DNA from: a bacterium
Lineage (GTDB): Bacteria; Fidelibacterota; Fidelibacteria; Fidelibacterales; Fidelibacteraceae
Reading direction: 5' to 3'
NCBI GenBank assembly: GCA_963676395.1
Contig: OY781066.1
Location: forward strand, 960,001-1,024,000
Length of the DNA: 64,000 bases
A model generated the notes under the pieces. It was given only the letters and a program-made list of their open reading frames with translations, made no database searches and was not told the DNA's origin. The position numbers and the translations under genes were made by a program. Below, piece by piece: positions 38,671-51,368 of the stretch. The stretch's first letter is position 1. Each line of letters starts with the position of its first letter.

Positions 38671-39714
38671 ATGGTAAGTAAAATTCACACTTTTTCGCTG
38701 GATCTTCAATGGAAGCTGATCAATGACATTTCTAAGATCGATCGTTTCGATGCATCATGGACATCTATAGAAAAAAAGGAAGGTTCCAGTTTACATCAAT
38801 TAAAACAAATTGAAACTGTAAGAAGCGTGGGCGCATCTACCCGAATCGAAGGTTCGCTGATGTCGGATGATGAAATACGGATCTTTCTTGAAAAAGAGAT
38901 CGACATAACAAAGCTCGACGACAGGGATTCCCAGGAAGTTCTGGGCTATTTTGATACCCTGGATATTATCTGTGATTCTTACAACAATATCAATATCACA
39001 GAAAGCGCCATTAAGAACTTGCACAACATCCTCTGCAAATACAGCGAAAAAGACCATTGGCATAAAGGCGATTATAAACAACAGAATAATGCAGTAGAAG
39101 CCACACTGCCGAATGGAGAGAAAAAAACATTGTTCAAAACAACGCCGGCAGGTATTCCTACGGAAAGCGCTATGAGAGAATTGATCGAATGGTATCATGC
39201 CGACAAGAACACACATCCATTGGTCAAATGTGCAAGCTTTGTTTACGATTTTGTGAGCATTCATCCCTTTCAAGATGGGAACGGACGCTTGAGCCGTCTC
39301 TTGACGACTTTATTATTGCTGAAATCCGGATATAAATGGATACAATATGTCAGTTTTGAACATGAGATCGAAAGCAGAAAGAGTGAATATTATTCTGTAC
39401 TAAGGACGTGTCAGGCTAAACGCCCGAATGAAAACATCACACCCTGGAACGAATTCTTTTTCTCGGCTTTATCTAACATTCAAGAACAATTAATGGCCAA
39501 ACTTGAACACGAAGGATCCGGATCGGAATTATCAATGAGGGAAAAAATCATTGTCACGTATATTGCAGGGCACCCGGGGTGCAGATCCGGAGACATTTCA
39601 GATAAACTTGATATCCCTCTGCCCAGTGTTAAACGATTACTCGCCGAGCTTTACAGGAAAAACCTGATCGACCGGCATGGGTCCGGTCCGGGAACACATT
39701 ATACCGCCAATTAA
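38671..39714 (+). CDS. Fic-family protein with C-terminal winged HTH
   Basis: HPFQDGNGRLSR catalytic motif; N-terminal STRIEG inhibitory motif; C-terminal HTH ending G.GPGTHY. Confidence 0.92.
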   Translation: MVSKIHTFSLDLQWKLINDISKIDRFDASWTSIEKKEGSSLHQLKQIETVRSVGASTRIEGSLMSDDEIRIFLEKEIDITKLDDRDSQEVLGYFDTLDIICDSYNNINITESAIKNLHNILCKYSEKDHWHKGDYKQQNNAVEATLPNGEKKTLFKTTPAGIPTESAMRELIEWYHADKNTHPLVKCASFVYDFVSIHPFQDGNGRLSRLLTTLLLLKSGYKWIQYVSFEHEIESRKSEYYSVLRTCQAKRPNENITPWNEFFFSALSNIQEQLMAKLEHEGSGSELSMREKIIVTYIAGHPGCRSGDISDKLDIPLPSVKRLLAELYRKNLIDRHGSGPGTHYTAN

Positions 39715-40096: not shown

Positions 40097-40867
40097 ATGA
40101 ACGATTTAGCAATTATTCAAAAACAGCTTCAAACCCATTCCGGTATTACAATTCAATCTTTAAATGAATTGGAACTGTATAAAAATAAGTTTTTTCTTTA
40201 TAGGGGTAATATTGTTCTTGTATACATAAGAGATCAATACTCTAATTCCAAGAATAAAAAACACAGAGAGTATAAATATCATATTACCAACTGTAAAACC
40301 CTTTTGGAGATGGCCAATAATGATCGATTTGATAGGTATGTTATTTCAACCCGAATTGATGGATATTTTTTGATAAATTTGCGGGATGTCGAAACACATA
40401 AATTAATTAAAAAAGGAGTTGTAGAACATTTAAACGTATGTAAAAATTGTTTGTTAAAACTTGGCTACCGTGGTTATAAAAATCATAAAGAGGATAAGAA
40501 TATTTATCATAACTTTAACTTCAATGACTTTCTAAAAGAGAATTATACTTTCTTTAAACAACAGCCTAAATATAATAATTTTAATGCACCTCAAGACGAA
40601 TACACGAAAGATTTTGAACAAATATCATATTCATTTAGGGCAATAAATGATTGGCGATGCAGTAACTGTGGAATTGGGCTTGAGAATAATAAAGAATTTT
40701 TAGACACACACCACATCAATGGTATAAAATCTGACAACAATTTAACTAATTTGGAATGTTTGTGCGTATGCTGTCATGCTAATAAATATCTCCATGATCA
40801 TATGAAAAAATCAAAGAAATATGCAACCTTCATTAACAAATTGATGAAGGGAGGTAAGACAAAATAG
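40097..40867 (+). CDS. HNH endonuclease, ZorE-like
   Basis: C..C...HHINGIKSDN...NL..LC..CH HNH; N-terminal blocks VYIRD, YHI..CKTL.EM...RF.RY, RIDG.F, L.VCKNCL..L.Y.G resemble Zorya II ZorE as recalled. Confidence 0.75.
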   Translation: MNDLAIIQKQLQTHSGITIQSLNELELYKNKFFLYRGNIVLVYIRDQYSNSKNKKHREYKYHITNCKTLLEMANNDRFDRYVISTRIDGYFLINLRDVETHKLIKKGVVEHLNVCKNCLLKLGYRGYKNHKEDKNIYHNFNFNDFLKENYTFFKQQPKYNNFNAPQDEYTKDFEQISYSFRAINDWRCSNCGIGLENNKEFLDTHHINGIKSDNNLTNLECLCVCCHANKYLHDHMKKSKKYATFINKLMKGGKTK

Positions 40868-43011: not shown

Positions 43012-44077
43012 TGAAATTCCACCCAAATAAAAGAATAACTAAAATTCTTATTTCATCAACCAGTAGATTCGTAGGAGAATTTATTGATAATGATTTATTG
43101 ATAACACATGCTCGGGCAAGTAGTTACAATCAAATTGAAGGAACCTCTGGATTTCATGAAAATCCATTAAGCCGTAATTATTATGTTATTGTAATGGAAA
43201 CTCCTGAAACAAAAAAAGGAACAGTAGTTATACCAAATTATACGTATATGGGTGATGCCGTTACTATTCTTATGAGTATTCTTTTCGGTAAAAGATTTGA
43301 TAATCATGGACGGATAGAAAGCACAGGTAATTTTTATTTACCGGATATATCAAGTAAAACAACTCCATGTATTTCTTCTTTAGCCTATAATAACCATAAA
43401 CCAAGAAAAAATTTAAACATAGCATTAAAATTAAATGAATTTGAAAGAATTTTTCCCTTGTTAACAGATAATTTTAAAGATGAAATATTTTTAAAAATAT
43501 TGTTTTCTGCTGGCCGTTTTTACGTACACGCACTTCAAGAAGCTGAGCAACAGCCTGCGGTGAAATCCTTTCGAATTATTATCAATATTCTGATGATGAA
43601 ATTATTGACGATGATATGAAAAAAGATTTAGAAATTATTGAAACTCAAATTGATAATGGAGACATTATTGCAAAAAGAATAAGAAACCGTTTATTTCAAG
43701 TCAGAAAAAGACACAATCTCACAATACAAAAATTACTAACATCTGATTTTTTTGCTAATTCTGAATCAACTTCCGAGTTTTTTTCTTTAACAATTGAGGG
43801 ATTCACTAAAAGAATAAATGCAGCATATGATTTGCGAAGTCTCTATGTTCATACTGGAACAGAATTTGGCCCATGGTTAACTATCGGCATGCGTGATAAT
43901 TACGAGATTAATTTGGGACAGCCTGTAATCAAAGACAAAACACTAAAAAAACTCATACAGGATTGCCCAACTTTATTTGGACTCGAAAGAATAATGAGAT
44001 ATTGCTTATTGCGTTTTATTCATTTACATGGTTGTAAAATTGATGATTCACTTGAAGGAGATGGATTAATAAAATAA
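43011..44077 (+). pseudogene. HEPN-domain (ApeA-like) gene split by a frameshift
   Basis: Frame switch near 43554-43557; the second frame is open upstream of its ATG (CGEILSNYYQYSDDEIIDDDMKK); RSLYVH (RxxxxH) at 43835-43852. Confidence 0.7.
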
Positions 44078-44150: not shown

Positions 44151-44435
44151 ATGACAAGTAAAGCATATATAATAAGTTATGACCTAAATTCACCTGGGCA
44201 GGATTATTCTAAATTATATGAAAAAATTAAAAGTCTGGGCAAGTGGTGGCATCATTTAGATTCCACATGGATTGTTAAATCTGATAAAAAAGCATCTGAG
44301 ATTAGAGATTATCTTGCTGATTATTTAGATAAAAATGATGAACTGATTGTTATAAAATTAGGAGATTCATGGGCAGGCATCGGGTTTGAAAAGAGAGCTT
44401 ACGATTGGCTTCATGATAACGCATATGAGAAATAA
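44151..44435 (+). CDS. Small Cas2/VapD-like ferredoxin-fold protein
   Basis: YIISYDL....QDY..LY..IK.LG.W.H.LDSTWIV; D..D.LIV. Confidence 0.65.
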   Translation: MTSKAYIISYDLNSPGQDYSKLYEKIKSLGKWWHHLDSTWIVKSDKKASEIRDYLADYLDKNDELIVIKLGDSWAGIGFEKRAYDWLHDNAYEK

Positions 44436-44438
44436 ATA

Positions 44439-44963
44439 ATGATATTAAACTTTGAAACCATAGCTTTAATCGTATCCATAACATCAATAATTTTGGCTAT
44501 TGTATCATTACTGTTTTCCGTAATATTTTATTGGTGGTCAAACAAATCAAATAGACAAACTTTTGAGTTATCAAAAGAAATTGAACAAAACACAAATAGG
44601 ATTCATGAATTATTTAATAGATTTTATTCTGATACCTTTGGTTTAATGAAAAGCAATTATTTGGCGATGCAATCTAGTATTTTCAGCCAGCAAGTAAGTT
44701 CGGGTGATTCTTCTTTTTCCCCAGAGGAACAGATTGAAAATATTATTATTTCTCTGTTGTTAAAGTCAAAAGTGTTAACACGTGAAAATATTTGCACTTA
44801 TTTTGAAAACACATATCCATCAAAGCAAATTTCACGACAATCAATTTTGGACGCAATAAATTCCCTTAAAGATAAAAACAAAATTTTCATTAATGATAAT
44901 TTGATTTCAATTTCTACTGAAAAAAAATCTTCTTCTAATGAAGATGAGAGCAATAGTTCATAA
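44439..44963 (+). CDS. Membrane-anchored hypothetical protein with possible C-terminal winged helix
   Basis: One N-terminal TM helix, coiled coil, C-terminal AINSLKDKNKI.I...I.I pattern. Confidence 0.6.
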   Translation: MILNFETIALIVSITSIILAIVSLLFSVIFYWWSNKSNRQTFELSKEIEQNTNRIHELFNRFYSDTFGLMKSNYLAMQSSIFSQQVSSGDSSFSPEEQIENIIISLLLKSKVLTRENICTYFENTYPSKQISRQSILDAINSLKDKNKIFINDNLISISTEKKSSSNEDESNSS

Positions 44964-44971
44964 TACCTTCC

Positions 44972-45461
44972 AAACTCTGTTCCCTTGCTTTTAGTAAACA
45001 TTCCACCTATATTCTTTTACCTGAATCTGTGTGGCGCAGTGAAATGGTTCCTATGAAACGTTTTCCGTTTTTCAAGATCATATTACTAAGCCTGGTCATT
45101 TCCCCGGTATTTTTAAGCGGGTATTCGCGGACGGCACGTTATGATGCGGTGATATCGCGGGAGGGAGAGCGCCGGTGTTTCAGGATGACGATTCTTTTTG
45201 TTATTTAGATTATCCCAGACCTCCATTCTCAACCCTTGATCCTCCCCCGCATCATTACCTATATTCATTTAGCCGAGAGGCTGTGTGGCACACTTCAAAG
45301 AACACTGGGCGCTGAGCGGTGCCTGCCCTGCGTAGCCTTGTGCGAAGCAGGGGGCTCTGTGAAAGGGTGCGTATGAAAACGACTCCATTTTATAGATCTA
45401 TTTGCTAAGCCTTGTCATTACCCTGCTTTTTTTGTGCGGGTGTTCGCGGGCGAAAAATTGA
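44972..45461 (+). pseudogene. Two tandem degenerate copies of promoter module B plus 5' stub of a lipoprotein gene
   Basis: MKRFPFFKIILLSLVISPVFLSGYSR (from 45053) versus frameshifted ...LLSLVITLLFLCGCSR (ATG 45373); each preceded by TTGxTx-17/18 bp-TATATT and CTGTGTGGC. Confidence 0.55.
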
Positions 45462-45823
45462 AAATTGACCAGCCTCCTTCGCCAGCTGGCGGATTGTTAA
45501 TTATAAAGAAAATGCTGCTTATACTCTTCTTTGACCCCTCGAAATCAATAAAAGTCATTAATTCCGAATCATGATACTTGGAAAGGTCGCGCCTCAGCGG
45601 CGACGCGTGAAGAAAATCCGATGAGGTAGGCTTTGATCGTTATCGGGGTGCTTTGAGTTCTGTCACATACTAAATAATATTCATCTATCCTGAATCCATA
45701 ATACTGAGCACGTATAATAAATTGAATGAATATAAAAATTAACAATTAATCAATTTAAACTTTTGTCGTGCTTCTATTTTTCATTATCTTAATTACTACA
45801 AACAACTAGATATTGGATAATGT

Positions 45824-46962: not shown

Positions 46963-47394
46963 ATGAAATCTCAATATATCGCACCCTGCGGGATGAATTG
47001 TGCCTTGTGCATCGGCTTCATTCGTGAGAGAAACAAGTGCCATGGTTGCAACGAACACGATCAGTCAAAGCCCGAATACTGCCGTTCCTGCAAAGTCGTT
47101 GTCTGTGAAAAACGCAAGGCTTTGCCGCTCGGGCCGGGGGAAGTTGTTGCTCTGTGCTACGACTGCCCTGACTTACCGTGCGCGCGCATCAAGCAGCTGG
47201 ATAAACGCTACCGCGCCCGCTATTGGATGTCCATGATGGAGAATTTGGCGTATATTAAGGAGCATGGAATGGTTGCGTTTCTCGCGCGGGAAGAAAAACG
47301 ATGGAAATGTACTTCTTGTGGAGAAACATTGAGCGTTCATCGCACAGAGTGTCTGCAGTGTGGTCACCCGCGCGAAATTATGAATGATGGATGA
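46963..47394 (+). CDS. DUF3795-type Cys-rich protein
   Basis: IAPCG.NC..C, C..C, CY.C...PC, C-terminal C..CG...HR..C..CG. Confidence 0.8.
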   Translation: MKSQYIAPCGMNCALCIGFIRERNKCHGCNEHDQSKPEYCRSCKVVVCEKRKALPLGPGEVVALCYDCPDLPCARIKQLDKRYRARYWMSMMENLAYIKEHGMVAFLAREEKRWKCTSCGETLSVHRTECLQCGHPREIMNDG

Positions 47395-47880
47395 TGGATT
47401 ATGAATAAAGTGACTGGACAGGTCACCGATCACTATATTCTGGATTCCGGCTTCTGATAAGACGGTTCCCTTCCACCCAAGAATATTCTCCTGGATCTGC
47501 CACGCCTCTTCCCTGTCCGCCGACTTGTGCGTCGAATCGGTCGACTGGCGGAGAAAACGGAAGCTTTAGCGAAGGCTGGAATTACAAGCATTTATATGAC
47601 GTAACATGTGACGTGCGACGCACTCGTTACGAGTTACGAGTCACGAAAAAAGTCATAAAATACAAAGAATTATCGTAGGAAAAGCTATCAGCTATTCAAG
47701 ACGCATTTGCTGATTGCTGAAAGCTATTTGCTGAAGGCTATCCCGAGCTTTAGCGAAGTTGAGCGAAGGCGGGTTCGCCTCCCCGCCTCCCAAATTGTGA
47801 TCCCCGTCACACTTTTAACAAATAAGTCTTATTCATCCTCTTAATTGGCTGTTTGCTGTAAGCTGTGGGCTGATAGCTAT
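47385..47880. repeat. Dense spacer of heptamer arrays and REP-like palindromes
   Basis: ATGATGG x2, GTTACGA x2, AGCTTTAGCGAAG x2, TCCGCC...GGCGGA, and a 27-bp exact copy of 37494-37520 at 47687-47713. Confidence 0.75.
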
Positions 47881-47957: not shown

Positions 47958-48034
47958 CTTTACATAAATTTATCTTAATTTGATATTATTCGTTAAATCT
48001 AAAAAAAGTTTAATTAACTTTTCGGAGGGTTATT

Positions 48035-48385
48035 ATGGATCCAATCACATTATCAAGTGCAGCTATTTCAATTATTACTCCTTTTATTGTAAAAACTGGG
48101 GAGGCAATAGTTCAAAAAACAGGAGAAAAACTTTGGAAATGGTTAAATATCAAGTTTAAAAAAGATGAAATAAAAACCAAAACAGGAAATATGAATACAG
48201 GTGATTTTGATATAATTAAAGGTGTAATACTTGATAAAATAAATAACGATAAAGAATTTAAAATAGCACTTGAGAAAGAAATAGAAAAAGCTAAAACATC
48301 AATATCAAAAATGACTGTTATTAATAAAGAAACTGTTGAAAAACAAATCAATATTAACAAGAATTTTGGTGATATTACTATGTGA
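48035..48385 (+). CDS. Small helical protein, Bell-domain-like candidate effector with C-terminal amyloid-like motif
   Basis: GGAGGG RBS; MDPITL + hydrophobic helix, GEKLWKWL..KF, D.EF...L; ends VEKQININKNFGDITM. Confidence 0.65.
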   Translation: MDPITLSSAAISIITPFIVKTGEAIVQKTGEKLWKWLNIKFKKDEIKTKTGNMNTGDFDIIKGVILDKINNDKEFKIALEKEIEKAKTSISKMTVINKETVEKQININKNFGDITM

Positions 48386-48408
48386 TACTATTGAAAATAC
48401 TTATTAAG

Positions 48409-48936
48409 ATGAAGCAATTAAACATTAACAAAAATTTTGGGGAAATCTATCTAGAAAAAACAACCAGATTTTCTAGCCGATTCAAGCGATTAAACGAAGA
48501 AATTGAAAAGGATCAAAAAATTGATGAAGTTATCGATAAACTTCAAACTTATAATAAATCAGCTGATTTAAGAAGTATGCCAGAAAAACTAGAAGATGGT
48601 GGTTTTTCGAAAGAAGAAATTTATCAAGCAAAATTAAGAAAACAACAATATTGGATGAGTTTTGAAAAACATAAATTCTACAAAACAGCTCAAATAATTG
48701 ATTCAGAAATATTTGCATTGTTGAAATTTAATTTTGACACTTATATTTATCCTTTAATTTTGCAAAACGAACCAAAAAATAAAATCTTACTTGAATTAAA
48801 TTCAAAAGTTATATTGCCAATATTAACATTATTGAATAAAGAAGGCGAGGAAGATACTTATCTAAACTATAGTGTTGATGATTTACTTGGCATGTTATAT
48901 TTTATTACTGGCAAGTGTCATATTAATTGGAAATAA
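48409..48936 (+). CDS. ABC-three-component/Lamassu-type CTD protein with N-terminal motif matching the upstream gene
   Basis: EKL..GG, AQ.I...IFA, I.P.I, GMLYFITGKCHINW as in ABC-3C CTD proteins (CTD6-like as recalled); begins MKQLNINKNFGEI; alternative GTG start 48382. Confidence 0.75.
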   Translation: MKQLNINKNFGEIYLEKTTRFSSRFKRLNEEIEKDQKIDEVIDKLQTYNKSADLRSMPEKLEDGGFSKEEIYQAKLRKQQYWMSFEKHKFYKTAQIIDSEIFALLKFNFDTYIYPLILQNEPKNKILLELNSKVILPILTLLNKEGEEDTYLNYSVDDLLGMLYFITGKCHINWK

Positions 48937-48937
48937 A

Positions 48938-49459
48938 ATGATTGTATATAATCAAGCTTATGATGTCTATTACACAATTTTTAGGATGATTCATTTACTT
49001 TATAGTATCAGAAAAAGTAATAGTATAGATTTGGATCGATTAAGAATTTACGATTTTTATTTATTATTTCCCAGTGCGAGTCATAACATGACTATAAAAC
49101 GTAATGAAGGTGATATTCGCCAGTTGAGAAAAGATTTGATTGACAAAAATAAAAATCCCTTCGAAATTCTTTATAACCAGAAAAAAATATTCGATAATAT
49201 AAAGAATTTTCAAATAACTTCATTAAGATGTCTATCTTCTTTTGGGCTAATAAATAATGATTTTGAAAAATCAAAGACGATTATTATTGAAGATAATTCT
49301 CTTTTGGAAGAAGCTATAGATAATATTGGGAAGCTGACTTCAAGGCAAAAAAACATGTTAATCTTTATTCAAGAAAGTTTCTCAAAATTCCCTATGACGG
49401 GCGTAGATGGAATTAAAAATCGTACCAAATTAATGGAAAGCAAGTATGATGCAGAATAA
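48938..49459 (+). CDS. ABC-three-component system middle component (MC5/LmuC-like)
   Basis: MIVYNQAYD.Y..IFR, RLRIYDFYLLFP, GIKNRTKLME.KYD; sits between CTD and ATPase genes. Confidence 0.75.
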   Translation: MIVYNQAYDVYYTIFRMIHLLYSIRKSNSIDLDRLRIYDFYLLFPSASHNMTIKRNEGDIRQLRKDLIDKNKNPFEILYNQKKIFDNIKNFQITSLRCLSSFGLINNDFEKSKTIIIEDNSLLEEAIDNIGKLTSRQKNMLIFIQESFSKFPMTGVDGIKNRTKLMESKYDAE

Positions 49460-51368
49460 CTTATTTGTAAATCGATTATTAATTTATACCGAAGAGGGTC
49501 GAATAGCTTACGATGAAGAATTCCATAAAGGTATAAACATTATTAGAGGACATAATAGTAGCGGAAAATCCACAATTACTCATTTTATATTTTTTGCATT
49601 AGGGGGTGCTTTCAATAATTTTGTTCCAGAAGCCAAAAAATGTTCTACTGTATATATTGAAATTGAAGTCAACAATGCGGTCATTTCCCTTAAGAGAAAT
49701 ATTGAGAAAGATATTTATGATAAAATTAATTCGAAATCATCTTTATACTTTTATTGGGGTTCCTTAGAAAAAGGATTAAGAAGTAGTAAGGATTGGTATA
49801 AATTTGGTTATAACTCAACCAAGAATACAAAGAGTTTTTCAAATGTGCTTTTTGAAAACATGGATTTACCTATAATATATGCTGATAATAATATAACTTT
49901 TTATCAAATTTTACGACTCTTGTATATTGATCAAGAATCTCCAACAAGTTCTTTATTTTATTATGATCAATTTGATAGTCAAATTACCAGAGAAACAGTA
50001 TCAGAAATATTATTAGGATTATATAGCAATGATCTTTACACAAAAAAAATGAGATTGAGAACAGCGAGAAAGGAACTTGAAAGTATAAATGATGAAATTA
50101 GAGTTACAAAACGATTTTTCAAGGACCCGAACTCACTTGACTCTGGGTTCTTAGAAAGTAAAATCAAGAGCCTAGAAGAACAAATATCCTCTATTGATAA
50201 TCAAATAACAAATATTCGTAATGGAAATAAAACCGTTGAATTTAAAAAAACCTCTAAGATGGAATTTGAAAATATTGAAGGCGAAATAATAAATACAAGA
50301 AAACATCTCACTGAAACAAAAAATAAAATTGCAACACTAAATAGTGAAATTGAGGATACAAGCTACTTTATCTATACTTTAAAAAGTAAAATTGAAGCGT
50401 TAAGAAATTCAATCAAAACAAGAAATTTTTTAGATAATATTGATATTGAATTTTGTCCAAAATGTTTATCAAAAATAGATTCTAAAGCAAATATTGGGCA
50501 ATGTAATTTATGTAAACAAGAAATTAGTATAGATAATACTGGAGAAGCTGAAGCAAGAAAGATTGAACAAGAAATTAGTTTTCAAATACTTGAATCAACT
50601 CAAATTCTTGAAAAGATTCAAAGAGAACGTATAGATTATAAATCTGTGTATAAAGGAATTCAAGCTAAGTTGTTTGTCCTTCAACAGAAACAAAACTCTA
50701 TTATCAAAGATGTAAAATCATATCAACAAGAAGTACTTGACAGTCTTTTTACTAAAAAAGGGTTTATTGAAGGAGAATCTTTACAGTATCGAACCATGCT
50801 TGAAAAAGCTACATTATATGACGAATTGCTTGACATTAAATACTCCTTAAAAAAAGAAATTGAGTTACTGGATAAACAAATTTTACAAATTGAATTTACT
50901 CAAAACAGGCTCAAAGTTAGAATAAATGATACGATCAAAAAAGAAGCTCTTTATTTACTAAATAATGATTTAAATCGGCAAGATGAGTTTCGCAATGCAA
51001 GTGAATTCTATATTAATTATTCAAATAATATCGCTTTTTTATCAAGTAAGTATGCAAAATACTCAGCAAGCTCTAATTTTTACCTGAAAATCACTGCGCG
51101 TTTTGCAATATTTTTAGCATCCCTATCTATTCCTGAAATGAGATTTCCTAGATTTATATTTGCTGATAATATGGAAGATAAAGGAATTGAAATAGGAAGA
51201 GCTCAAAATCTTCAAAAAGTTTTAATAAAACGTTTAAATGAGTTTGATTCCAAAAATTATCAATTGATATACACTACCTCGTATATTACAGATGAGCTTA
51301 ATGAGAGTCCTTATGTCGTAGGTGAATTTTATACTGAAACTAATCGGAGTCTTAAAAATATTTCATAA
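49446..51368 (+). CDS. SMC/Rad50-like ABC ATPase (ABC-3C / LmuB-like)
   Basis: Walker A GHNSSGKST, LYIDQ Q-loop, long coiled coils, central CPKC..CNLC, SASS signature, FIFADNMEDKG, QLIYTTS. Confidence 0.88.
   Translation: MMQNNLFVNRLLIYTEEGRIAYDEEFHKGINIIRGHNSSGKSTITHFIFFALGGAFNNFVPEAKKCSTVYIEIEVNNAVISLKRNIEKDIYDKINSKSSLYFYWGSLEKGLRSSKDWYKFGYNSTKNTKSFSNVLFENMDLPIIYADNNITFYQILRLLYIDQESPTSSLFYYDQFDSQITRETVSEILLGLYSNDLYTKKMRLRTARKELESINDEIRVTKRFFKDPNSLDSGFLESKIKSLEEQISSIDNQITNIRNGNKTVEFKKTSKMEFENIEGEIINTRKHLTETKNKIATLNSEIEDTSYFIYTLKSKIEALRNSIKTRNFLDNIDIEFCPKCLSKIDSKANIGQCNLCKQEISIDNTGEAEARKIEQEISFQILESTQILEKIQRERIDYKSVYKGIQAKLFVLQQKQNSIIKDVKSYQQEVLDSLFTKKGFIEGESLQYRTMLEKATLYDELLDIKYSLKKEIELLDKQILQIEFTQNRLKVRINDTIKKEALYLLNNDLNRQDEFRNASEFYINYSNNIAFLSSKYAKYSASSNFYLKITARFAIFLASLSIPEMRFPRFIFADNMEDKGIEIGRAQNLQKVLIKRLNEFDSKNYQLIYTTSYITDELNESPYVVGEFYTETNRSLKNIS

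Follow-up and report, generated by a model that had tools for sequence, protein, structure and literature searches.

In the Bell/NLR pairs designated BASS1-10, effector and receptor genes are collinear and separated by small gaps (Dyrka et al., bioRxiv 10.1101/2020.01.06.895854), and the published description places the common motif at the effector C terminus and the receptor N terminus, with pseudo-repeats on the effector side and effector domains that are exchangeable. In abortive infection by the Bab/Agp pair of E. coli ECOR25 (BASS11; Ibarlosa et al., bioRxiv 10.1101/2024.11.07.622273), a Babybell effector and its sensor are linked through an amyloid motif about 20 aa long; the same source names the conserved N terminus of Bell and Babybell domains 'MEPIS' and reports that MEPIS mutation abolishes killing by Bab. 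The MEPIS helix is pore-lining. NWD2/HET-S of Podospora anserina (HRAM), as described, combines an oligomerizing NLR sensor carrying one 21-residue repeat with an effector that has two pseudo-repeats and a membrane-targeting helical domain.

Lamassu (ABC-3C, DdmABC) operons are described as encoding an effector component, a middle component and an ATPase in that order. LmuA is reported to be a monomer in the LmuA1B2C1 complex and to tetramerize through its C-terminal domain (CTD) on activation, oligomerization through the CTD being known from that report only for a CTD type other than CTD9 (PMC12663957). The N-terminal domains described for LmuA are enzymatic (nuclease, protease, Sir2, TIR and others) and, according to a review, Lamassu otherwise always carries its effector on LmuA (PMC10586767).

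Here we analyse a four-gene Lamassu/ABC-3C operon in the window (the whole 64,000-nt stretch of bacterial DNA that was studied), in which the protein encoded by gene 1 ends, and that encoded by gene 2 begins, with nearly the same 12 residues. We propose, with a probability of roughly 0.6, that the two copies serve to couple the parts of a split Lamassu and nucleate cross-β activation of a membrane effector. That the products of genes 1 and 2 are coupled through the motif is well supported; its amyloid (cross-β) nature is suggested by architecture and composition. The operon appears to be a variant that combines features of known BASS pairs, of Bab/Agp and of Lamassu, and the coupling of Lamassu to amyloid signalling would be new, no link between the two having been found in the literature searched.

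The operon and its surroundings

All four genes lie on the forward strand and encode, in order, a 116-aa helical protein, a CTD9 protein, an MC5/LmuC component and an LmuB-like ATPase. Gene 1 (48035-48385) is preceded, 5 nt ahead of its ATG, by a Shine-Dalgarno-like GGAGGG (48024-48029, forward strand), read directly from the bases and the sole strong site of its kind within the operon. Gene 2 (48409-48936, with an alternative GTG start at 48382) encodes an LmuA-type adaptor in which a short N-terminal motif precedes CTD9 (Pfam PF20285, 3.3e-26, residues 57-174, above the 27.9-bit cut-off); its homologues are 37-53% identical, and Pfam found no effector domain ahead of the CTD9 core. Gene 3 (48938-49459) encodes an LmuC-like ABC-3C middle component 5 (PF20291 MC5, 5.3e-36; PADLOC LmuC, 4.2e-5) whose true start is MIVYNQ, as in homologues, and not the upstream GTG of the mechanically called open reading frame. 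Gene 4 (49446-51368) encodes an LmuB-like ABC ATPase of the SMC/Rad50 type (PADLOC LmuB, 4.4e-33; Pfam AAA_23, 2.6e-11; weak SMC/Rad50 matches in NCBIfam), the translation of which contains the Walker A sequence GHNSSGKST, a coiled coil and a CPKC...CNLC pair. From the DNA alone, an earlier note had guessed at an ABC-3C sensor, and the Pfam CTD9 and MC5 matches prove it right.

The operon thus resembles described Lamassu, ABC-3C and DdmABC systems in its LmuB-like ATPase, in an LmuC/MC5 component encoded between the CTD9 protein and the ATPase, and in the LmuA-type C-terminal docking domain (CTD9). It differs from them in the absence of an enzymatic or toxic N-terminal domain on LmuA, which is replaced by a peptide of 19-32 aa, the presumed effector being a separate gene. 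As the effector domain is absent from LmuA, we file the operon as a Lamassu variant with its effector in trans. Krishnan et al. 2020 reportedly defined ABC-3C and CTD9 and may already cover effector-less CTD9 proteins.

The neighbourhood is a defence island, with SoFic (1.2e-42) and a ZorE-like HNH protein (4.2e-65); its GC content is 25-28% against 38% for the genome, and no tRNA was found in the window. Among 401 sampled genomes of the phylum, CTD9 was detected in one, which is the window's own.

The motif common to genes 1 and 2

The first copy, KQININKNFGDI (48341-48376, forward strand), forms residues 103-114 at the C-terminal end of the gene 1 product and is encoded by AAA CAA ATC AAT ATT AAC AAG AAT TTT GGT GAT ATT. 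The second, KQLNINKNFGEI, forms residues 2-13 of gene 2 counted from ATG 48409, is encoded by AAG CAA TTA AAC ATT AAC AAA AAT TTT GGG GAA ATC (48412-48447) and is followed by YL (to 48453, same strand). The earlier note had reported that ten of the 12 residues are identical, the remaining pairs being I/L and D/E, and that five of the ten identical residues use different synonymous codons; re-reading the bases confirms both. As DNA the copies match at 28/36 bases, and the five codons shared among the identical residues compare with 6.06 expected from the operon's own codon usage, so that their likeness as DNA is no greater than the common peptide demands. Comparing the last 30 residues of gene 1 with the first 30 of gene 2 gives a best 12-mer identity of 10, whereas 5,000 composition-preserving shuffles reached a maximum of 7. 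A six-frame regular-expression scan placed the motif at these two sites only in the whole 2.34-Mb genome.

To see how the pairing behaves in relatives, we used 89 CTD9 loci, of which 80 came from metagenomes (scanned with alignment A3), 7 from genomes and 1 from a further genome search, the window supplying the remaining one. The loci were gathered with CTD9 as bait and therefore say little on how frequent relatives of gene 1 are elsewhere. An upstream open reading frame of at least 40 aa is present in 87, on which the motif comparison was made. In 84 of the 87, the CTD9 N-extension finds its best local match at one end of the upstream protein (C terminus in 53, N terminus in 31); 300 shuffles never reached the observed score in 70 of the 87 loci and reached it at most 15 times in 81. 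Homologues therefore retain the motif in both partners, and its loss or lack of constraint in one of them, which the earlier note had named as refuting, is not what they show.

Five effector/motif classes recur, and the motifs match inside each pair. The upstream gene encodes a Babybell-like effector in class A (42 loci), a two-TM protein in class B (7 loci), a 172-aa protein in class C (31 loci, one broken), a 53-91-aa TM protein in class D (5 loci) and a 140-148-aa protein in class E (2 loci); dereplication at 90% CTD9 identity leaves 42 representatives. In classes C and E the motif is N-terminal in both partners, which sets them apart from the Bell/NLR pairs, as does the occurrence of the present loci mainly in Bacteroidota-labelled records and alongside an SMC/Rad50-like ATPase, the Bell/NLR pairs being described from Actinobacteria, Cyanobacteria and some Archaea with NACHT/NB-ARC receptors. 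The same layout is found in an Allorhizobium plasmid locus (L095) with a CTD9 that is 25% identical, where an upstream 64-aa TM protein ends ..AGGDIVGGNK.. and the CTD9 protein begins ..AGGDIVAGNK... The small TM proteins of classes B and D and of this plasmid locus look like membrane effectors.

Across 31 dereplicated class A/B pairs, both partners have the core Q-x-N-I-x-x-N-x-G-x-I-x-[LMF] in common. In this set cognate partners are more alike than non-cognate ones by mean Smith-Waterman score (51.4 versus 46.5, a difference reached by 0/10000 permutations) and by ungapped 15-mer identity (5.74 versus 5.23; 36/20000 permutations), and in either direction the first rank goes to the pair from the window. 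Co-variation specific to pairs is modest: cognate partners mostly rank in the middle, and each side is conserved as orthologues, in an effector-side version ..EKQINIQxNxGNIQM and a sensor-side version ..NQLNIGENQGAIYL that are maintained separately. Selection for a matching peptide, which the earlier note had preferred to a recent duplication, is upheld by the chance-level codon identity, by the retention of the motif at the same termini of both partners across relatives and by the greater likeness of cognate pairs in the permutation tests.

The same data bear on two other accounts of the match. We give almost no credence to a chance likeness of low-complexity, AT-rich coding sequence, or to a functionless relic of a small duplication, which the comparative data already contradict: N, K and I codons are indeed common at the GC content of the island, but 5,000 local shuffles did not exceed 7/12 where 10/12 is observed, codon identity at chance level makes a recent duplication unlikely, and the motif is kept at the same termini in 84/87 loci and in 34 aligned relatives of gene 1. 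It is also highly unlikely that a third party reads the motif in both proteins, as a protease degron, chaperone site or localization signal, with no mutual binding. Short terminal peptides often serve as degrons or sorting signals, and physical contact between the two proteins is a prediction; a common reader, however, needs one motif, whereas the CTD9 family contains at least five unrelated motif types, each matching solely in its own pair, cognate pairs co-vary, and the motif is confined to these two genes in the genome.

The N terminus of the gene 2 product depends on the junction ATGTGATA (48380-48387, forward strand), which contains the codon that ends gene 1 together with its stop, the GTG at 48382 and, at 48385-48387, an ATA at the site where relatives put the ATG of gene 2. 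As the earlier note had it, the bases read ATGTGA at 48380-48385 with GTG 48382-48384 in the gene 2 frame. The extension before the conserved CTD9 core is 19 aa with ATG 48409 and 28 aa with GTG 48382. No in-frame ATG, GTG or TTG occurs between 48412 and M57, and M57, the next canonical start, sits inside the conserved CTD9 core; a start past the motif, also named beforehand as a refutation, is therefore not what is found. A GTG 48382 start with translational coupling is plausible; genes 1 and 2 would then overlap by 4 nt and the N-extension would measure 28 aa, both values near those of the family. In relatives the ATG of gene 2 overlaps the stop of gene 1 by 1 nt in 23/42 class A and 7/7 class B loci and the overlap is 4 nt in 9/42 class A loci, the gap being -1 or -4 nt in 39/49 class A/B loci.

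The N-extension of the CTD9 protein measures 29-32 aa in 48/49 class A/B loci and contains two repeats there, the sensor-side motif finishing I-Y-L in most relatives. The window is the exception, with the second repeat alone (12-14 residues); the 12-mer first described is thus a real motif, but as a unit it is merely the second half of a two-repeat motif of about 25 residues in relatives. For an amyloid core, one 12-mer on its own may be on the short side. An out-of-frame 'TIENTY' stretch lies between genes 1 and 2, and one may speculate that it is the remnant of a lost first repeat.

Gene 1 and its family

The gene 1 family is conserved in two parts, a helix at the N terminus and the motif at the C terminus. 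In the window the former is MDPITLSSAAISIITPFI (48035-48088, forward strand), within a stretch (residues 1-25) of mean Kyte-Doolittle hydropathy 1.2-1.6; across the 34 relatives of alignment A2 the family begins MEPIT or MDPIT, with the consensus MEPITL...P16..K20.G22E and MDPITL in the window. The tail, SKMTVINKETVEKQININKNFGDITM (48308-48382, forward strand), carries the family motif with its first repeat degenerate and its second intact; in A2 the C-terminal extreme has the consensus QQNIxNNGxIEKQINIQxNSGNIQM, two repeats of Q, N, G and I in which G112 is invariant and K103 nearly so.

An exhaustive HMMER search of 1.84 billion representatives returned 49 relatives at E ≤ 1e-3, a word-indexed search nothing beyond the protein itself. 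No family was assigned to gene 1 by Pfam, PADLOC or NCBIfam, and all 34 members of A2 gave only scattered sub-threshold matches in Pfam. The AF2 model made with A2 (pLDDT 73.1; the single-sequence model, at 45.8, was unusable) places five helices between residues 3 and 91 and predicts disorder (pLDDT <50) for the tail, residues 95-116. Foldseek gave zero matches to this model in the PDB at E ≤ 1e-3, and VIA-align wide nothing above helical-bundle noise (best Z 6.0), a range that includes the coiled-coil domain of ZAR1 (Z 5.4); a sequence-profile search of the PDB yielded a single irrelevant match (E 0.77). Two candidate families were set aside: NNH1, a weak match (E 0.16) of relative P0034 that a Pfam scan of the A2 members did not reproduce, and HetE-N, an Atlas lead covering 11% of one cluster that HMMER did not confirm.

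Relatives were present in 2/401 genomes in the phylum of G401 and in 3/401 in the order of G402, bait genomes counted. A further locus, L097 in G919, showed a weak gene 1-family match (E 2e-4). The viral contigs searched contained no relatives, and no longer, fused forms of the family were found in our search, which is weak evidence. The same helical domain bears other C-terminal tails rich in Q, N and G in P0033, P0034, P0050 and P0051, and in loci L096 and L098 it has as its partner a TPR protein of 540 aa, the two being matched by another motif, in the gene layout that is classical for BASS.

The locus resembles Bab/Agp in several respects: a small helical effector (Bab 109 aa, gene 1 116 aa), a conserved hydrophobic N-terminal helix (MEPIS in Bab, MDPIT/MEPIT in the gene 1 family), a motif of about 20 aa at the effector C terminus and the sensor N terminus, adjacent collinear genes and a setting in a defence island. 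The likeness of gene 1 to Bell and Babybell domains consists of the five-helix model and the MDPITL start, with no significant match to solved chains or Pfam. The systems differ in the sensor, which in Agp is a TPR-GreA/B-PIN protein and in the window a Lamassu/ABC-3C complex with a CTD9 adaptor as the link, and, as far as BASS11 is described, in the motif, with four glycines in about 23 residues there and one G per repeat of about 12 residues here. The motif that a BASS pair has in common between an effector terminus and the N terminus of an adjacent collinear sensor is present in the window; an oligomerizing receptor (NLR in BASS1-10, TGP in BASS11) is absent, its place being taken by the CTD9 adaptor. 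The division of repeats recalls NWD2/HET-S, with one repeat on the sensor and one intact plus one degenerate repeat on the effector, although, as that system is described, it has an NLR sensor and no sequence relation to the window.

These comparisons also weigh on the role of gene 1. We consider it very unlikely that its product is a regulator, a cap or antitoxin-like inhibitor or decoy, with toxicity residing elsewhere, in CTD9 aggregation or LmuB. In favour of a regulator, an enzymatic or pore-forming activity of gene 1 is at most predicted, and its product belongs to no known family and gave no significant match in fold searches. Against this, small TM proteins hold the same position elsewhere (classes B and D and the Allorhizobium plasmid), the hydrophobic N-terminal helix of gene 1 resembles the MEPIS helix that Bab is reported to require for killing, and without gene 1 the operon would have no effector, whereas other Lamassu are described as always having one on LmuA. 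We continue to regard the gene 1 product as the predicted effector, in which the helical domain is Bell/Babybell-like and the C-terminal tail would serve in signalling.

Proposed coupling of effector and sensor

How the motif joins the two proteins can be approached from several sides. Kaur et al. 2020 are said to have described the EADs of NTPase conflict systems as a small globular domain common to the core protein and the effector; here the common element spans 12-45 residues and is predicted to be disordered in gene 1, which argues, as far as the models go, against a globular EAD. Features in line with a cross-β motif are the alternation of Q/N with I/V, the conserved G, the two pseudo-repeats and the low pLDDT. 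Complex prediction for genes 1 and 2, run on our own alignments, scored 0.40 (runs 0.40, 0.00 and 0.45), with 0.00 for the best control, a partner pLDDT of at least 63 and at least 33% of contacts common to the runs. The mark applied is reached by 116/157 solved complexes and 2/215 mismatched pairs, and 18/157 solved complexes together with both passing mismatches lie at or below 0.60 among the passes; hence the support is weak.

The main competitor of cross-β templating, unlikely in our judgement but the one to be taken seriously, is a non-amyloid docking peptide that holds the gene 1 product constitutively on CTD9, by β-strand addition or as a small heteromeric element. A conventional two-domain LmuA would be rebuilt from two polypeptides, with the usual release and CTD tetramerization and no templating. 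The match within pairs and the terminal position are equally compatible with any direct-binding model; the separately conserved effector-side and sensor-side versions suggest a heterotypic interface and not identical stacking; the sensor motif of the window has just 12-14 residues; and the complex prediction weakly supports a 1:1 contact. On the other hand, the Q/N ladders, I/V alternation, conserved G, two-fold pseudo-repeat and predicted disorder of the tail fit descriptions of BASS and fungal motifs, and the same effector family is also paired with a TPR sensor, in a layout classical for amyloid signalling. Bab, the closest described analogue, is reported from experiment to act by amyloid conversion, and a permanently tethered pore-former would require a separate auto-inhibition.

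In the cross-β model that we prefer, the LmuB/LmuC part would sense phage DNA ends and the CTD9 protein would be set free and oligomerize through its CTD, as has been shown for LmuA of Vibrio cholerae. A cross-β (β-arch or solenoid-like) nucleus would form where several N-terminal motifs are brought together, and would recruit and template the tail of the gene 1 product; release of the effector N-terminal helix would then damage the membrane and the infection would abort. By analogy, this mechanism would correspond to those of NWD2/HET-S, of the Bell/NLR pairs and of Bab/Agp. With the recently reported tetramerization of LmuA through its CTD, a physical trigger for nucleation is already at hand, which makes the model directly testable, and nature supplies a panel for specificity in the five matched motif classes.

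A wider and more tentative proposal, which we regard as possible, is that CTD9-type Lamassu in general act by prion-like templating, with CTD9 as a dedicated nucleator and at least five orthogonal peptide codes leading to interchangeable effectors. The effectors in that reading are a Babybell-like pore-former, TM mini-proteins and two uncharacterized families of 140-175 aa. One uncharacterized family occurs in records labelled Prevotella or human gut metagenome. The head-to-head (N terminus to N terminus) topology of some pairs is not part of the available descriptions of BASS pairs.

If the coupling model is true, amyloid or prion-like immune signalling is not confined to NLR and TPR sensors but includes the widespread, SMC/Rad50-like Lamassu family, Lamassu operons with a seemingly effector-less LmuA are explained, and small upstream open reading frames, easily missed or called hypothetical, are real killing modules. 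Should templating hold for CTD9 systems at large, amyloid signalling would be a general output of bacterial immunity beyond NLR-like receptors, in which DNA-end sensing by an SMC/Rad50-like ATPase is converted into a self-propagating cross-β signal.

The four-gene operon and its shared terminal motif

Genes 1–4, all on the forward strand, form a Lamassu/ABC-3C operon. Gene 1 (48035–48385) encodes a 116-aa protein in no known family; gene 2 (48409–48936) a protein with the CTD9 domain of ABC-three-component systems (PF20285, 3.3e-26); gene 3 (48938–49459; true start MIVYNQ at 48938, judged by homologues) Middle component 5 (MC5; PF20291, 5.3e-36; PADLOC LmuC, 4.2e-5); and gene 4 (49446–51368) an LmuB-like SMC/Rad50-type ATPase (PADLOC, 4.4e-33). 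The LmuA-type gene 2 product lacks an effector domain, its CTD9 core being preceded by 19 residues only (28 with a GTG start).

The GC content of the operon is 25–28%, compared with 38% for the genome, and the operon sits within a variable region containing a SoFic-like Fic protein (38671–39714; PADLOC, 1.2e-42) and a ZorE-like HNH protein (40097–40867; 4.2e-65), both upstream in low-GC DNA. Of 401 genomes sampled across the phylum, only that of the window yielded CTD9, which fits horizontal acquisition of the operon. Two short segments of 48–50% GC (45000–45500 and 47000–47500) break up the 25–35% GC island, the second holding a Cys-rich DUF3795 ORF (46963–47394). A 94-aa ORF (44151–44435) that weakly resembles Cas2 and DUF3884 (Pfam, 2.8e-5; PADLOC Cas2b, 6.8e-5) is flanked by ORFs of unknown function (43616–44077 and 44439–44963).

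Genes 1 and 2 share a 12-residue motif on the forward strand, KQININKNFGDI at residues 103–114 of gene 1 (48341–48376) and KQLNINKNFGEI at residues 2–13 of gene 2 when read from ATG 48409 (48412–48447). The earlier note had described this motif as conserved in protein rather than DNA, and re-reading the sequence bore out its codons and coordinates: 10 of the 12 residues are identical, the remainder are I/L and D/E, and synonymous codons differ at 5 of the 10 identical residues. The copies agree at 28 of 36 bases. At the identical residues 5 codons are shared, versus the 6.06 that operon-wide codon usage (all four genes) predicts on average for independent sequences, so that the common peptide accounts in full for the likeness in DNA. 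When the 30-residue termini of genes 1 and 2 were shuffled locally 5000 times, the best match was 7/12, against the 10/12 observed, and scanning the complete 2.34-Mb genome in all six frames turned up no copies beyond these two sites.

Matching termini across CTD9 loci

Related loci were collected from genome contigs (191 pattern matches, 7 confirmed CTD9 relatives) and metagenome contigs (242 pattern matches, 145 CTD9 relatives, the best 80 of which were used), with one additional locus, L014, from a genome search; a CTD9 ORF was found in 89 of 89 sources, the window counted in. Leaving out L021, which ends at a contig edge, and L015, which has no upstream sequence, we compared the 87 loci that have an ORF of 40 aa or more upstream (again with the best 80 of 145 metagenome relatives). 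The best local alignment of the CTD9 N-terminal extension fell at a terminus of the upstream protein in 84 of the 87, at the C-terminus in 53 and the N-terminus in 31; in the exceptions the partner lies two genes upstream (L007), the upstream gene is truncated (L085) or the match stops nine residues short of the C-terminus (L057). The observed score was reached by 0 of 300 shuffles in 70 loci and by at most 15 of 300 in 81. Loci are often near-duplicates, with 42 representatives left at 90% CTD9 identity.

The 89-locus set (best 80 of 145 metagenome relatives) contains five effector/motif classes. Class A (42 loci including the window, 25 representatives) has an upstream protein of 106–124 aa that starts MEPIT and carries the motif at its C-terminus, effectors ending ..QQNINNNGxIEKQINIQxNSGNIQM and CTD9 proteins starting MSQxVxNxxxQIxNQLNIGENQGAIYL. 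Class B (7 loci, 6 representatives) has a two-TM protein of 90–96 aa with the class A tail, also C-terminal. Class C (31 loci, one broken; 5 representatives; for example, L008:2572-3087 and L058–L094), with proteins of 171–175 aa, bears ..GNPGTGNTF..NYNPNA.. N-terminally in both partners; its sources include a Prevotella-labelled record (L008) and human gut metagenome records. Class D (5 loci, 4 representatives) has a TM protein of 53–91 aa with a C-terminal motif, effectors ending ..NINAGGDVAGRDINK and CTD9 proteins starting MFGxNYKQENINAGRDVAGRDI. Class E (2 loci, 2 representatives; L007:2691-3137 and L093), with proteins of 140–148 aa, has ..SGGNNQILPNAT.. at the N-terminus of both. Neither class C nor class E effectors (140–175 aa) gave a Pfam or NCBIfam match. 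At L085:754-1173 (class C) the upstream effector has lost its N-terminal motif-bearing part and the CTD9 motif is intact, apparently a decaying copy.

An Allorhizobium plasmid CTD9 protein, only 25% identical, has the same layout (L095:3731-6931, NZ_CP049243.1): a 64-aa TM protein ending ..AGGDIVGGNK.. is followed by a CTD9 protein starting ..AGGDIVAGNK.., MC5 and the ATPase. A DarT-family gene lies immediately downstream on the opposite strand. The CTD9 peptide varies by class and matches its partner in every pair, and from classes A–E and the plasmid locus it follows, as a family-wide rule, that an effector-less CTD9 protein carries a short peptide matching its small neighbour.

In all 7 class B effectors a TM helix precedes a second hydrophobic helix starting (E/M)EP(I/L)I(L/I) (L006:3684-3965, L019, L020, L022, L026, L028 and L038). 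By eye, this second helix looks like the class A MEPIT start, as if a pore-lining helix had been retained with one TM anchor instead of a four-helix sheath; a profile search backs the class A/B likeness at the C-terminal motif only.

Among 31 dereplicated class A/B pairs, the core Q-x-N-I-x-x-N-x-G-x-I-x-[L/M/F] is kept on both sides; the refuting case named in the earlier note, a motif unconstrained or absent in one partner, does not hold for the homologues. Smith–Waterman scores averaged 51.4 for cognate versus 46.5 for non-cognate pairings, reached by 0 of 10000 permutations, and ungapped 15-mer identity was 5.74 versus 5.23, reached by 36 of 20000. The effect is modest, and cognate ranks are mostly mid-range because each side has its own conserved flavour; the window pair is the extreme case, ranking first in both directions, with an unusual K-N-F-G common to both partners.

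The start of gene 2 and a minimal motif

The N-terminal extensions of the remaining 48 class A/B sensors hold two repeats in 29–32 aa; that of gene 2 is 19 aa long if read from ATG 48409 and 28 aa if read from GTG 48382. Among relatives, the gene 1 stop and the gene 2 ATG share 1 nt in 23 of 42 class A loci and in all 7 of class B, and the overlap is 4 nt in 9 of the 42 class A loci; where relatives have the 1-nt-overlap ATG, the window has ATA (48385–48387). The GTG candidate would give a 4-nt overlap (GTGA), with GGTGAT ending 8 nt upstream as its ribosome-binding signal, and ATG 48409 would leave a 23-nt gap without an SD-like site. The motif lies inside the gene 2 product either way, because no in-frame ATG, GTG or TTG occurs between 48412 and M57, itself inside the conserved core; a start downstream of the motif, which the earlier note had named as fatal to its reading, finds no support. 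Since the nine residues that a GTG start would add (ILLKILIKM) are unlike repeat 1 and the first repeat of gene 1 is degenerate (MTVINKETVEK, without G), the window holds a minimal, one-repeat form of the family motif. Between genes 1 and 2 (region 48385–48408), the 23-nt spacer gives T-I-E-N-T-Y-stop when read in the third frame, a faint echo of the relatives' first-repeat ..IEN..; a repeat 1 lost by frameshift or deletion may have left this trace, or it may have arisen by chance in such AT-rich sequence.

The gene 1 family and a proposed amyloid output

An exhaustive HMMER search found 49 gene 1 relatives at E ≤ 1e-3, 12 of them at E ≤ 1e-10. An alignment of 34 of the 49 (A2) has two conserved parts, an N-terminal helix (M(E/D)PITL..P16..K20.G22E..GExxW34) and the two-repeat motif at the extreme C-terminus, in which K103 is nearly invariant and G112 invariant. 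The AF2 model from this alignment (pLDDT 73.1, pTM 0.60) places five helices in residues 3–91 and leaves the tail, 95–116, at pLDDT < 50. Against solved structures, a sequence-profile search turned up nothing relevant, Foldseek gave no hit at E ≤ 1e-3, and the best VIA-align Z, 6.0, did not rise above helical-bundle noise. Four relatives (P0033, P0034, P0050 and P0051) have the same helical domain with different Q/N/G-rich tails. A distant relative of 126 aa (L096/L098) precedes a 540-aa TPR protein with a 1-nt overlap (L098:72-2074, genome G1009), and its tail ..DINGHVTFGDNNTIS matches the TPR protein's N-terminus ..NVNGSVTFGDNSGNI (common ..NG.VTFGDN..); by sequence, this is the classical amyloid-signalling layout, a BASS-type (bacterial amyloid signalling) pair with a TPR-only sensor.

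The closest described likeness is the Bab/Agp system of E. coli ECOR25. In the Ibarlosa preprint (10.1101/2024.11.07.622273), Bab is a 'Babybell' effector of 109 aa. Four helices cup its conserved N-terminal 'MEPIS' helix, and its C-terminus carries an amyloid motif of about 20 aa that recurs at the N-terminus of the adjacent sensor; β-breaker mutations were shown to abolish abortive infection. Gene 1 resembles Bab, so described, in its length, its N-terminus, its predicted architecture and the place of its tail.

V. cholerae LmuA is reported to sit in the LmuA1B2C1 complex as a monomer and, after DNA-end sensing, to disengage and tetramerise through its CTD, bringing the N-terminal domains together (PMC12663957). 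By analogy, we propose that oligomerisation of CTD9 would draw the N-terminal motifs together as the nucleus of a cross-β fold, that this fold would recruit and template the gene 1 tail, and that the MDPIT helix so freed could attack the membrane. The main rival is that the motif is a non-amyloid docking peptide. A complex prediction for gene 1 with full-length gene 2, using custom alignments, scored 0.40 (runs 0.40, 0.00 and 0.45), against 0.00 for the best control, with a partner pLDDT of 63 or more and contact agreement between runs of at least 33%; it lends weak support to a modelled gene 1/gene 2 contact. Of 157 solved complexes, 116 reached the mark, as did 2 of 215 mismatched pairs; passes at 0.60 or under came from only 18 of the 157 and from both mismatches. 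The logic of the proposed cross-β mechanism is that of NWD2/HET-S and of the Bell/NLR pairs of Dyrka et al. (10.1101/2020.01.06.895854).

The literature searched did not link 'amyloid signaling' to Lamassu or 'bacterial amyloid signaling' to ABC-3C; from titles and abstracts, the three papers naming 'Lamassu' and 'amyloid' look unrelated, and within that literature BASS11 and Babybell appear in the Ibarlosa preprint only. Effector-less CTD9 proteins may already have been described, for instance by Krishnan et al. 2020, who defined CTD9, and the motif may be identical with BASS11. The head-to-head arrangement of classes C and E, N-terminal in both partners, is absent from the BASS passages compared. 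We read the window operon as a Lamassu system whose output is probably of BASS type.
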